A stretch of 64,000 nt of DNA, from assembly GCA_019894975.1 (NCBI GenBank), contig JAGXNO010000001.1, positions 128,001-192,000 on the forward strand. Reading direction: 5' to 3'. Below, in pieces: positions 12,369 to 15,916 of this stretch. The notes under the pieces were generated by a model that was given only the letters and a program-made list of their open reading frames with translations, was not told the origin of the DNA and did not search any database. This DNA comes from Promethearchaeota archaeon. Its GTDB lineage: Archaea; Asgardarchaeota; Lokiarchaeia; Sigyniarchaeales; SOKP01. The position numbers and the translations under genes were made by a program. The number at the start of each line of letters is the position of its first letter. The first letter of the stretch is position 1.

Positions 12369-12515
12369 CTAAACTGTTTCTATACCGATCAATTGTTTCT
12401 CTAATTCCTCTCTCTCTCCTTCATAGTCATAGGCATTATACCAATCCCATATTTTTAGAGCAAAATCTACAAACGCGTTTCCTTGAGCAGTAAGGATATT
12501 TTTCTCTTCATACAT
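12369..12515 (-). pseudogene. C-terminal remnant of a DJ-1/PfpI-family gene
   Basis: MYEEKNILTAQGNAFVDFALKIWDW... resembles the NIITAxGxA.xDFAL C-terminal motif; N-terminal part absent. Confidence 0.6.
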
Positions 12516-12640
12516 TTCTGTATAAAACAAAAATGTTAAATATAAGCTGTTGATTAAAGTTGATTAATTATTTTTATTTAATAAAAATACAGAAATCTAA
12601 ATTTAAAAAAAACAAATTAAAAGAATTAAATGTGAAAAAA

Positions 12641-15445
12641 ATGAAAAAAATTCGAATTTCGATTATTGTTCTCACTCTTTTAACTCTTTCAATGCTTTCT
12701 TATATTTCAACAGAAGTACTTGGTCAAACTCAAGATAATACCCAAATAACAACAAACCAAGCAGACCAGAAATTTCCGGCAATCTATGGTGATCGCATCG
12801 TATGGATGGACCGTAGGAACGGCAACTGGGATATCTATATGTACGATCTTTCAACGGGTACTGAAACCCAGATAACAACAAACCCATCAAGCCATGAGTA
12901 TCCGAAAATCCATGGTGATCGCATCGTATGGGAGGACTCGAGGAACGGCAACTGGGATATCTATATGTACGATCTTTCAACGGATACTGAAACCCAGATA
13001 ACAACAGATCCCGAAAGACAATGGTTTCCGGCAATCTATGGTGATCGCATCGTATGGGAGGACGGTAGGAATGGCAACTCGGATATCTATATGTACGATC
13101 TTTCAATGATTACTGAAACCCAGATAACAACAAACCTATCAAACCAATGGTCTCCGGCAATCTATGGTGATCGCATCGTATGGGGGGACCAAAGGAACGG
13201 CGACTATGATATCTATATGTACGATCTTTCAACGGGTACTGAAACCCAGATAACAACAGACACATTAAGCCAGGAGTCTCCGGCAATCTATGGTGATCGC
13301 ATCGTATGGGAGGACGGTAGGAACGACAACTGGGATATCTATATGTACGATCTTTCAACGGATACTGAAACCCAGATAACAACAGATCCCGCAATCCAGG
13401 CGGGACCGGCAATCTATGGTGATCGCATCGTATGGCATGATAATAGGAACGGCAACACGGATATCTATATGTACGATCTTTCAACGGATACTGAAACCCA
13501 GATAACAACACACCTATATTCCCAATGGTCTCCGGCAATCTATGGTGATCGCATCGTATGGTGGGACTATAGGAACGGCAACTGGGATATCTATATGCAC
13601 AAACTTCCTGAACTTGTTCAATTTATATATGGTACCAATTCTGGTCCGGTAGATCTAGATCCACATAATGCGTGGGATATTTCTTCATTTGATGTTATTG
13701 AGCAAGTTGTCGAAACGTTATATGCCTACGATTTACTCGATCCTGAACTTGCCCCCATCCCGAGATTAGCATCGGATTTTGGCACATGGTCAATAGATGG
13801 GTTAAGTTACACAGTTCCACTTAAAATGGGTGTCACATTTCATGATGGAACCCCGTTCGATGCTACAGCCGTTAAATGGAATTTTGATAGATTGGCATAT
13901 TTTATGAATTTAGAAAATCCAACTCATATATCCACATTGTATCTTTGGCATGATGGAACACCGATAATTAACGAGGTAGAGATCGTTGACGAATATACCG
14001 TAAAATTTGTGTTAAATAAACCATTTGCGCCATTTGAATCTTTATTATGTTTTAGTGGATCAGGAATTATGTCACCTACATCAACATCTCCAGAGAATTA
14101 TATTGATACGGCAACTGGAGATTTAGTTGGGACGGGTCCTTTTGTATATGATAATTATGAGGTAGGTGTTGAAGTCACCATGCACGCATATGAAAATTGC
14201 TGGGCGGGTGCTCCATATATTGACGAATTAACATTTTCAATTATTCCAGATATAAATGTGAGAAATCTGGCATTATTAGATGGAACTATTGACTTTTTAA
14301 AAACTCCTGACGATTCATTCTTCCAAACATTTAGAGATGATCCAGATATCACCCTTGTAGATGCTGGGCAAGACGCAACAATTCGATTTCTTGGGATGAA
14401 CAACAGGCTTATAAATGTTTCATTTCGAGAAGCGATTTCTTATGCCATTAATTATACATATATGATTGATGAGCTCTTAGGAGGAGAGGCTGTTAGATTG
14501 AAATCTCCAATTCCATTAGGTATAACGAACGCCAACTGGTCATTTAATGTTCCCATCCTAAATCTCACACGAGCAAGACAAGTCATGCAATCCATGGGAT
14601 TCGGCGTAGGGTTCGACGTGGATAAGGATGCTGAATGGACAACCCAAGCGACATTATCTCCTTTTAGGTCAATTAACTATACATATAATTGGGGTAATAA
14701 ATTCCGAGAAGATATGCTGCTATTATTACAAGATAATCTCGGAAAAATTGGAATCAAAGTGATAGATGCTGGTATGACATCGCGTGAGTATTTTGATAGG
14801 CTCCTTGATATACCACCATATAGTAGAAACCATTTAGAGCTTTTTTGGGTAGGTTGGGTTCCAGATTATAACGATCCGAGCAATATTATAAATTCAATGT
14901 TCTCCAAGAATTCTGTAAGTAATTTCGCGCAAGTAGATGATGATTTAGTACAGCAATGGATGGAAGAAGCCTTAATTACTATAAATCCAGCGGAAAGAAA
15001 AGTTTTATATGATAAGATTCAACAACGACTGATTGAAGTAGTCTTTCCATACGCTTGGGGTTATGTAAGAAGAAATTATGATGCGCACAGTAGCAAGTTC
15101 ACTGGTTTTCAATCAAATCCAATGGATAAAGTGTGGTTCTATACTGTTTCCAGCCAATCTCCAGACGTTAACGGTTATATACAAAACCTACCCGATGAGT
15201 TTTTTGTAAATAATGCTGAGCAACGTAAGAACGCATTATCGGAAAAATTCAATGACGTATTCGAACATATAAATAATGGTGAGTATGAAGAAGCGATAGA
15301 CAAATTAAAGCATGATATTCGTCCAAAATGTGATGGAAGTCTCGGTGGCAATCCTCGGAACGATTGGATAACCGATCCAGAAACACAGCAAGAGTTATGC
15401 GCGATGATTGATGCATTAATCGCATTTTTGGAAACATTGATTTGA
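12641..15445 (+). CDS. Secreted protein: signal peptide + 7-bladed beta-propeller + family-5 ABC solute-binding domain + C-terminal helical domain
   Basis: MKKIRISIIVL signal; 7x TQITT...PAIYGDRIVWxDxRNGNxDIYMYDL; FHDGTPFDA.AVKWNFDR, VGTGPF, GWVPDYNDP. Confidence 0.9.
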   Translation: MKKIRISIIVLTLLTLSMLSYISTEVLGQTQDNTQITTNQADQKFPAIYGDRIVWMDRRNGNWDIYMYDLSTGTETQITTNPSSHEYPKIHGDRIVWEDSRNGNWDIYMYDLSTDTETQITTDPERQWFPAIYGDRIVWEDGRNGNSDIYMYDLSMITETQITTNLSNQWSPAIYGDRIVWGDQRNGDYDIYMYDLSTGTETQITTDTLSQESPAIYGDRIVWEDGRNDNWDIYMYDLSTDTETQITTDPAIQAGPAIYGDRIVWHDNRNGNTDIYMYDLSTDTETQITTHLYSQWSPAIYGDRIVWWDYRNGNWDIYMHKLPELVQFIYGTNSGPVDLDPHNAWDISSFDVIEQVVETLYAYDLLDPELAPIPRLASDFGTWSIDGLSYTVPLKMGVTFHDGTPFDATAVKWNFDRLAYFMNLENPTHISTLYLWHDGTPIINEVEIVDEYTVKFVLNKPFAPFESLLCFSGSGIMSPTSTSPENYIDTATGDLVGTGPFVYDNYEVGVEVTMHAYENCWAGAPYIDELTFSIIPDINVRNLALLDGTIDFLKTPDDSFFQTFRDDPDITLVDAGQDATIRFLGMNNRLINVSFREAISYAINYTYMIDELLGGEAVRLKSPIPLGITNANWSFNVPILNLTRARQVMQSMGFGVGFDVDKDAEWTTQATLSPFRSINYTYNWGNKFREDMLLLLQDNLGKIGIKVIDAGMTSREYFDRLLDIPPYSRNHLELFWVGWVPDYNDPSNIINSMFSKNSVSNFAQVDDDLVQQWMEEALITINPAERKVLYDKIQQRLIEVVFPYAWGYVRRNYDAHSSKFTGFQSNPMDKVWFYTVSSQSPDVNGYIQNLPDEFFVNNAEQRKNALSEKFNDVFEHINNGEYEEAIDKLKHDIRPKCDGSLGGNPRNDWITDPETQQELCAMIDALIAFLETLI
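12740..13597 (+). repeat. Seven tandem 126-bp intragenic repeats (last one truncated)
   Basis: Units start at 12740, 12866, 12992, 13118, 13244, 13370, 13496; shared ggtgatcgcatcgtatgg and gatatctatatg cores. Confidence 0.97.
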
Positions 15446-15754
15446 TAGATGAATAAGTGTCGTTACCTATAAAATAACCCAAATTTTTTTTTTTCTTTTT
15501 GGATTCTTTTCCTTTAAAAGACTTTTTAGTTTTTTTCCTAATATTACTATTTCAGGTATAAAAATCCTTAAATTCCCAGAATTGATTAAAGAAGAAAAAA
15601 GAATCATTGATCCAATCGTAGCACCTACATCAAGTTTGAAAATTCAAGTATTAGATGTTGATTTTATCAGGGATGATTGCTAAACCTCCTGAACTAACAA
15701 CCGGTGATTTCTTTTAATATGTAATATAGACTATTTCGTGATCTTCTCCACTAT

Positions 15755-15916
15755 TCAAGCCAGAACAAGCAAGAACGGTTTCAAAATCTCAACTCTCACA
15801 ACACTATCGTCGCTTTTCTCGATCAATGAAATTAATGAATCTGAAAAAGTTGCTTGATCAAGAATTCCGCTTTGAAAATGCTCTAAAAGAACCTTCGGAT
15901 TTTTTTCTCCTTCCAC
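15755..15916 (-). pseudogene. Short ORF (53 aa), probable N-terminal remnant of a helical-repeat protein
   Basis: MEGEKNPKVLLEHFQSGILDQATFSDSLISLIEKSDDSVVRVEIL...; HEAT-like LISLIE.SDD..VR.E motif then early stop. Confidence 0.4.

Follow-up and report, generated by a model that had tools for sequence, protein, structure and literature searches.

How can tandem repeats remain almost identical in DNA over most of their codons and yet differ nearly everywhere at a small set of others? This question is raised by one gene, hereafter P0001, of a Promethearchaeota (Lokiarchaeota) archaeon, i.e. an Asgard archaeon, located in the 64,000-nucleotide stretch of contig JAGXNO010000001.1 that was analysed as a whole (hereafter the window). 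An earlier note, made from the letters alone, had described in this gene a homogenised or recently amplified framework carrying hypervariable codons and had proposed a special, antibody-like scaffold. We assigned the repeats to the beta-propeller family TIGR04275, whose array in this gene appears to be a recent foreign insert. With moderate confidence, we attribute their pattern to recent amplification and concerted evolution by recombination, the loop differences being kept by selection and no dedicated mutator being involved.

P0001 lies on the + strand, starts with GTG at 12632 or ATG at 12641 and ends with the stop codon at 15443-15445, giving 934 amino acids counted from the ATG. It encodes, in this order, a signal peptide, seven 42-residue repeats, a family-5 solute-binding protein (SBP) domain, SBP_bac_5, and a helical tail. 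The product is a secreted, probably surface-exposed protein with a predicted binding function. The features that carry the argument are the following:

12632-12736, + strand: GTG/ATG start, hydrophobic signal peptide and short linker, read from the translation; DNA 99% identical to the orthologue of sister species G043 and to metagenome contig L107
12737-13606, + strand: in-frame 870-bp insert holding the entire seven-bladed propeller (residues 33-322), defined relative to a propeller-less orthologue; GC content at third codon positions (GC3) 0.50 vs 0.29
12740-13597, + strand: seven 126-bp (42-codon) blade units, from Tandem Repeats Finder, a per-codon table, TIGR04275 and the AlphaFold2 model
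12755-12775, + strand: hypervariable codons 6-12 in blade 1, situated in the D-A loop and at the beginning of strand A, 21 nt recurring every 126 bp in blades 2-7
+51, +57 and +72 nt counted from the start of codons 6-12 (12755 in blade 1), + strand: hypervariable codons 23, 25 and 30, from the per-codon table

Tandem Repeats Finder returned a 126-bp period (6.5 copies, 84% matches) together with a weaker 378-bp higher-order period over 12740/12775-13597. The blade units start at 12740, 12866, 12992, 13118, 13244, 13370 and 13496, and blade 7 departs from the repeat past codon 34-36. The per-codon table reproduced exactly what the earlier note had read, i.e. seven 42-codon repeats, three silent differences and the lists of variable residues. 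Across the seven blades the framework carries 3 silent and about 6 replacement changes. The silent ones affect one blade each (CAA/CAG at codon 2 in blade 1, GAC/GAT at codon 24 in blade 6, AAC/AAT at codon 27 in blade 3), and replacements fall at codons 14 and 16 (blade 2), 28 (blade 5) and 29 (blade 4); codons 39-40 are variable too. The excess of variation claimed for codons 6-12, 23, 25 and 30 was borne out: 27 of their 30 nucleotide columns vary, vs 11 of the 96 elsewhere (Fisher p = 1.5e-15), with a minimum of 46 substitutions in these 30 nt vs 12 in the remaining 96 nt. Amino acid identity between blades is uneven, i.e. 0.94 in the framework and 0.26 at the variable positions (about 75% overall). 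The residues at the ten hypervariable positions (n=70) include 14 W/Y/F and 41 polar or charged ones. At variable columns the consensus base is G 10 times, A 6, C 6 and T 5, with 31 transitions and 39 transversions.

Synonymous (dS) and nonsynonymous (dN) divergence was computed per codon class as crude Nei-Gojobori (NG86) averages across blade pairs, which do not amount to a site model. Framework codons gave dS 0.06 and dN 0.025, codons 6-12 dS 0.91 and dN 0.66, and codons 23, 25 and 30 dN 1.19 with an unreliable dS (1.4 silent sites). When two blades share a residue, they also share the codon in 420 of 438 framework comparisons vs 20 of 35 in codons 6-12, and silent events number roughly 4 per 49 loop codons vs 3 per 210 framework codons. 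Some loop sub-motifs recur between blades; that of codons 10-12, for instance, is found in blades 3, 4 and 7 as well as in L107.

Searched with NCBIfam TIGR04275 (beta_prop_Msarc), the repeats scored 493.2 bits for a cut-off of 85, in seven stretches, and the same gene in other assemblies carries the precomputed Pfam label PF26549, Tricorn_N. A search of 1.84 billion representatives gave 25,080 relatives of the propeller at E <= 0.001; those with names are mainly Methanosarcina cell-surface proteins with PKD domains, and other hosts include Thermoplasmata, Woesearchaeota, Nitrospirae and Planctomycetota. The best identity to the P0001 propeller was 60-71%. Neither the search of the representatives nor word-index searches, some of them with short fragments or with the N-terminal 118 residues as query, went beyond about 73%, and none of them returned a database protein with loops orthologous to its own. 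As in-register and one-blade-shifted alignments to relatives score equally, this similarity is one of framework only. A hidden Markov model (HMM) built from the P0001 blades was used to retrieve 658 blades from 79 other family loci, in which the seven positions of highest entropy are 11, 25, 12, 9, 30, 23 and 7, all of them hypervariable in P0001, and positions 6, 8 and 10 are moderately variable. The hypervariable codons of P0001 are the positions that vary most across the whole family. A JGI metagenome protein of 1224 aa, P0231, also combines a propeller of this family with SBP_bac_5. Its SBP part is unrelated to that of P0001 (E = 0.009), which rules it out as an orthologue and makes it an independent fusion, so that the combination arose at least twice.

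The AlphaFold2 model, computed from a 37-sequence alignment, is confident (predicted local distance difference test, pLDDT, 95.5; predicted template modelling score, pTM, 0.92) and shows a closed propeller of seven blades with four strands each. In repeat numbering, strand A comprises codons 10-16, strand B 19-24, strand C 31-36 and strand D 41-42 plus codons 1-2 of the following unit. A short N-terminal strand completes blade 7 in the model ("velcro" closure), which accounts for an array that opens in strand D and stops once strand C is over. The modelled closure argues for seven as the functional blade number. Foldseek and HMM searches returned no solved structure for any TIGR04275 member, the nearest solved folds being TolB, S9-peptidase propellers and tricorn protease.

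Where four antiparallel strands make up a blade, one face of the propeller carries the D-A and B-C connections and the opposite face the A-B and C-D turns. Codons 6-12 make up the D-A loop and open strand A, codon 23 sits where strand B ends, and codons 25 and 30 stand on either side of the B-C loop. All ten hypervariable codons would then share one face, as deduced from strand topology and not from coordinates, and codons 39-40, in the C-D turn, would lie on the opposite face. The topology of this model agrees with the guess, made before any structure was predicted, that the variable codons occupy one face, and this D-A/B-C face is likely the ligand-binding one.

To compare uniformity across the family, codon identity was defined as the fraction of blade pairs sharing a framework amino acid that also share its codon, in genes with at least five blades. 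P0001 reached 0.97, the highest value among 81 family genes, and the 80 relatives span 0.40-0.88 continuously. The next most uniform genes (0.81-0.88) come from metagenome-assembled genomes (MAGs) of Nitrospirae, Altiarchaeales, Woesearchaeota, Thermoplasmatales and Saccharibacteria (loci L098, L080, L029, L039, L036 and L065), and each homogenised relative has a private framework signature common to all its blades. Methanosarcina copies are not homogenised (codon identity about 0.5). The nearest neighbour in framework DNA lies within the same gene for all seven P0001 blades, for 128 of 506 blades family-wide, and for most blades of a gene in 15 of 81 genes; no foreign framework consensus comes closer to that of P0001 than 79% DNA identity. 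Other homogenised members show no excess silent divergence in their loops. TIGR04275 thus mixes old, differentiated propellers with others independently and repeatedly re-amplified or homogenised, and it seems to have been re-amplified repeatedly after arrival in new hosts.

These values uphold the homogenised or recently amplified framework of the earlier note. Its special, antibody-like scaffold is not supported: the variable positions are the family's own, homogeneity forms a family-wide continuum, no mutational signature was seen, and precedents exist in the WRAP propellers (PMC9218822, PMC6805158) and in the fungal HET/NWD repeats (PMC1805685).

The array has not always been part of this gene. 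Its closest orthologue, from sister species G043 (locus L019, 1498-3459(-), 653 aa), lacks the propeller, its signal peptide joining the SBP domain directly, and the SBP and tail parts of the two proteins are 84% identical. GC3 is 0.50 in the insert, 0.29 in the rest of the gene and 0.19-0.29 in neighbouring genes, the insert framework uses codons rare in the host genome, and the GC richness already suspected for the repeats was confirmed (45% vs 31.6% for the genome). No strong TIGR04275 match was found in 24 genus relatives, nor any framework DNA in 154 genomes of the order. By its composition and distribution, the propeller appears to be a recent, foreign, in-frame insert from a more GC-rich source.

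The gene itself also seems to move. Propeller aside, P0001 is a mosaic against the G043 copy, with dS 0.083 and dN 0.05 over 544 codons and dS 0.61 over another 110 codons, which lie in about six divergent patches with indels; the grpE-dnaK-dnaJ DNA of the two species is only 76% identical, and the genomic contexts of the two copies differ. The low dS of the gene, the 76% housekeeping identity, the differing contexts and the divergent patches together point to recent transfer between species with patchy recombination. The patches resemble segments acquired by recombination with other alleles or paralogues. Around the gene we found no terminal or flanking repeats of a mobile element. In viral contigs the signal-peptide DNA had no match, and the single match otherwise obtained was due to chance and fell in GC-rich DNA outside any propeller, so that nothing indicates a viral carrier. 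Two AT-rich flanks, 12391-12501 and 15662-15789, match G043:C7:6255-6773 at 70-75% identity, where they lie only about 280 nt apart, and each contains a small minus-strand open reading frame (ORF) of 47-48 aa called in ENA assemblies. The matching region may represent an empty site, or else a small-gene element that occurs repeatedly.

A scan of metagenomes for the framework DNA returned a single contig, L107 (Ga0114925_10060438; JGI). It comes from a different species, as its neighbouring gene encodes a protein 66% identical to that of a gene elsewhere in the host genome. In L107 the signal-peptide DNA is that of P0001, the linker is a different one with 24 additional nt, and a first blade follows before the contig breaks off. 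Compared with blade 1 of P0001, this blade differs at none of 24 comparable framework codons and at 7 of the 10 hypervariable ones (7, 10, 11, 12, 23, 25 and 30). Its codons 10-12 are those of P0001 blades 4 and 7; taken as a whole, it comes nearest to blade 4 (90%). From this single partial allele, the constant-framework pattern appears to hold across lineages, with loop segments reassorted. A five-residue motif, P-E-L-x-Q, precedes the propeller in the linker of L107 (compared over 2078-2311) and directly follows it in the window gene (compared over 13598-13640). Either the two lineages may have slightly different insertion points, or the insert may have this motif at each of its ends.

The same strain is represented by two further MEGAHIT assemblies in ENA (accessions ERZ27271168 and ERZ27271183), here L120 and L121, whose flanks match the window at 100% identity over 3.6 and 5 kb. 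Seven blades are present in the window and four in each of these assemblies, the difference being in both cases a single clean deletion of 378 bp. L121 lacks blades 3-5 (order 1-2-6-7), and in L120, blades 1-2-3 are followed by a chimera of blades 4 and 7. The crossovers fall in these two identities:

12949-13013, + strand: 65 nt identical with 13327-13391, crossover of the 378-bp deletion in L121, from assembly comparison
13144-13183, + strand: 40 nt identical with 13522-13561, crossover of the 378-bp deletion in L120, from assembly comparison

The four-blade forms are either real recombinants dominating other samples or assembler shortcuts. Repeat-number variation is a known trait of such arrays (PMC9218822; PMC1805685).

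Family, fold, insertion, foreign composition, codon statistics, recombinant deletion forms and the absence of reverse transcriptase (RT) and donor cassettes are shown by the data, and from them the following course of events can be proposed. A propeller of GC-rich foreign origin would have been inserted between the signal peptide and the family-5 solute-binding domain, its blades going back to one unit, or to a few, of very recent origin. The blades would be kept alike, presumably to this day, by gene conversion or unequal recombination among the 126-bp repeats. Lasting differences would be confined to the free or specificity-determining positions of the family, i.e. the D-A and B-C loops, where selection for seven unlike sub-sites and the exchange of loop segments between blades and alleles may keep the codons different.

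Several observations weigh against this scheme. Substitutions are about 12-fold denser in the loop codons than in the framework, and the loops have diverged at silent sites also (the 20/35 vs 420/438 shared codons given above), which is hard to obtain from a recent burst and selection alone. This implies either older loops with homogenisation of the framework only or a locally raised mutation rate, and it suggests that the loop segments may be older than the framework, or more mutable. Codons 24 and 26-29 form identical islands (3 + 12 nt) amid variable codons, which conversion tracts cannot spare without selection. The genome holds one seven-blade gene, the large repeat pool of the fungal case being missing, and the case for ongoing recombination rests on assemblies.

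A first alternative starts from one blade amplified in a single recent burst, the model put forward for WRAP, after which very strong positive selection would have acted on the loops without any later homogenisation. The Nostoc WRAP offers a precedent, with 14 near-identical blades distinguished by replacement changes only and no silent ones (PMC6805158; PMC9218822). A framework dS of merely 0.06 and a propeller composition not ameliorated toward the host (GC3 0.50) also fit a young array. With the framework dS as clock, however, loop codons would need a dN/dS of roughly 10-20, and a burst accounts neither for the silent divergence within codons 6-12 nor for the 378-bp higher-order period and the loop sub-motifs common to non-adjacent blades. 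We regard this alternative as unlikely.

A further alternative is that the uniform framework, the blade order or both are an artefact of assembling a tandem repeat from short metagenome reads. The 7, 4 and 4 blades of the same-strain assemblies leave room for this, as does the fact that the most homogenised family members all come from MAGs too. It is nevertheless very improbable. Every blade retained in L120 and L121 is base-for-base identical to the window, with no within-strain loop variation among the three assemblies, and the same framework DNA recurs in an independent JGI contig of another species (L107). Framework differences found in one blade only have survived assembly, MAGs of Methanosarcina show no homogenisation (codon identity about 0.5), and the longest exact repeat of the array, 65 nt, is below the assembler's upper k-mers. 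In addition, the seven blades and the closing N-terminal strand model as a confident closed ring. Loop sequences and uniform framework are reproducible between assemblies; blade number and order are not.

We also give little credence to a bolder possibility, in which P0001 would be a horizontally mobile surface receptor of Lokiarchaeota-type archaea with a purposely diversified propeller face, whose framework is kept for short-patch recombination or an unknown mutator. If this were true, cells and species would each have their own number of blades and set of loops, and the archaeal lineage closest to eukaryotes would have an adaptive recognition repertoire.

Dedicated diversification machinery was sought in the host assembly, which measures 3.9 Mb and is 95% complete, so that absence of cassettes in it is not proof. 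It contains no RVT_1 reverse transcriptase, no second framework-DNA copy, template or donor cassette (exact motifs and blastn) and no TIGR04275 stretch besides the seven blades of P0001, which extends to the whole assembly the earlier observation that RT and template were lacking. A diversity-generating retroelement (DGR) is excluded as far as these data go, with neither RVT_1 nor template copy nor adenine bias. Cassette-based antigenic variation of the pilE/pilS, vlsE or tprK type was likewise rejected, the framework being found only within this gene of a 95%-complete assembly. Most doubtful of all is a targeted process, i.e. an unrecognised mutator or programmed short-patch recombination using the framework DNA as recognition or recombination substrate, which is what the antibody-like scaffold of the earlier note amounts to: the extreme contrast in substitutions (46 in 30 nt vs 12 in 96 nt), the raised silent divergence of the loop segment, the L107 framework that is 100% identical in another species with changes at hypervariable codons only, and the hyperdivergent patches of the gene against its orthologue would suit it, but no RVT_1 and no template or donor copy was found in the assembly, nor such a copy in viral contigs, no adenine-specific or transition-biased signature is present, the variable positions are those of the family, other homogenised members of which lack excess loop silent divergence, and the three same-strain assemblies agree on the loops of every blade present.

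The remainder of the gene consists of two further features:

13754-14917, + strand: SBP_bac_5, family-5 extracellular solute-binding domain (PF00496), residues 372-759, Pfam E = 6.5e-67
15146-15445, + strand: C-terminal helical tail, residues 836-934, and stop codon; likeness to FIMAH-type bundles, structural only

The tail, of about 100 residues, has no significant Pfam match. Structural neighbours of its model in the Atlas reach template modelling (TM) scores of 0.73-0.80 and include FIMAH clusters; FIMAH (PF22888) occurs together with the TIGR04275 propeller family in other proteins. Weaker structural neighbours (TM 0.68) are bAvd-like four-helix bundles, and the likeness to Avd is probably a generic resemblance between helical bundles. 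P0001 is flanked by acyl-CoA dehydrogenase and thioesterase genes upstream and by grpE-dnaK-dnaJ-tfb downstream. The protein cluster to which its DnaK neighbour belongs at 90% identity is named after Promethearchaeota and Candidatus Lokiarchaeota, which places the host among the Asgard archaea. Its SBP_bac_5 domain is that of family-5 ABC substrate-binding proteins, but no permease, ATPase or other transporter gene stands beside it among the neighbours within the window, making it an orphan SBP gene. In the host genus, SBP_bac_5 domains 42-56% identical to that of P0001 often lie within open frames of 1,200-2,800 aa holding up to four of them in tandem (e.g. G046:C96:2757-9761, G061:C157 and G002:C12), and the domain seems to serve there as a module of giant extracellular proteins, beyond a transporter role. 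Two antisense ORFs run through the repeat array (12672-13106(-), 144 aa, and 13110-13538(-), 142 aa) and are most likely by-products of the periodic sequence, not genes.

Among known systems, the closest are the TIGR04275/PF26549 propellers themselves, found in surface proteins of archaea and bacteria, with which P0001 shares the 40-42-residue blade, the framework consensus, seven blades, the secreted context and the variable positions. It differs in its partner domain, SBP_bac_5 instead of the usual PKD or PGF-pre-PGF domains, and in its host, an Asgard archaeon whose relatives lack the family. Most members, especially in Methanosarcina, have old, differentiated blades with a codon identity of about 0.5 and blade-to-blade orthology between genes, whereas the P0001 blades are homogeneous in DNA.

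Recently amplified, highly repetitive propellers are known from the WRAP of Nostoc punctiforme Npun_R6612 and relatives (Afanasieva et al. 2019, PMC6805158; Pereira and Lupas 2022, PMC9218822), and gene-private nucleotide signatures imply within-gene amplification in WRAP and other lineages (Pereira and Lupas, PMC9218822). P0001 resembles them by its near-identical blades, almost no silent change, gene-specific signatures and differences in blade number among genes that are the same in all else. The 14 blades of WRAP, a WD40 propeller, show no more than 13 replacement changes; P0001 is TolB/PD40-like, and 10-12 of its codons, about a quarter of the blade, are near saturation. Its blade identity of about 75% lies above the threshold of at least 60% set for highly repetitive propellers (Pereira and Lupas 2022), and the near-absent silent change and private states are likewise present. 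By internal identity and scarcity of silent change, the array belongs with these propellers. The text of PMC9218822 makes no mention of PD40, TolB or Tricorn.

The WD40 repeats of HET-D, HET-E and NWD proteins in Podospora anserina, and those of other fungal NLRs, show high internal conservation (Paoletti et al. 2007, PMC1805685; PMC4986451; PMC12222747). Like P0001, they combine DNA-homogenised repeats, hypervariable codons on the interaction face of a propeller (deduced for P0001 from strand topology) and changes in repeat number. The fungal genes, however, form a 10-gene repeat-pooling family of intracellular STAND/NLR proteins with 4 variable codons per blade, to which repeat-induced point mutation (RIP) may add mutations. 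P0001 is one secreted, seven-blade archaeal gene with about 10 variable codons per blade, and it lacks the NACHT or NB-ARC nucleoside triphosphatase (NTPase) upstream of the repeats that defines the STAND/NLR architecture. Exchange of the HNWD type is represented in P0001 by within-gene deletion recombinants and shared loop sub-motifs, with no second locus in the genome and, between lineages, only the framework of L107. For selection of that type, crude NG86 averages give dN 0.66-1.19 at variable codons vs the framework dS of 0.06, and the face comes from the topology of a model. P0001 resembles the fungal repeats in its working but is not a member of that group.

With DGR targets, P0001 shares a fixed scaffold and variation confined to the predicted ligand-binding surface of a secreted protein; unlike them, it has no RT, template repeat or adenine pattern, and its variable region is a propeller instead of a C-type-lectin or Ig region.

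The pattern is thus already known from other recently amplified repeat proteins, and no new diversification mechanism is revealed. What is new is the Asgard archaeon host, a propeller family absent by name from PMC9218822, and the fact that the insertion can be seen, in a solute-binding gene that is an orphan and passes from species to species. P0001 provides a clear archaeal case, of TolB/Tricorn type, of a propeller being built and homogenised now, with the propeller-less orthologue, the foreign origin and the recombinant blade-number forms all visible. An Asgard archaeon is seen here acquiring and remodelling a putative surface-binding module in a gene moving between species, and, given long reads, the locus could serve to study how propellers originate and how their binding faces diversify.

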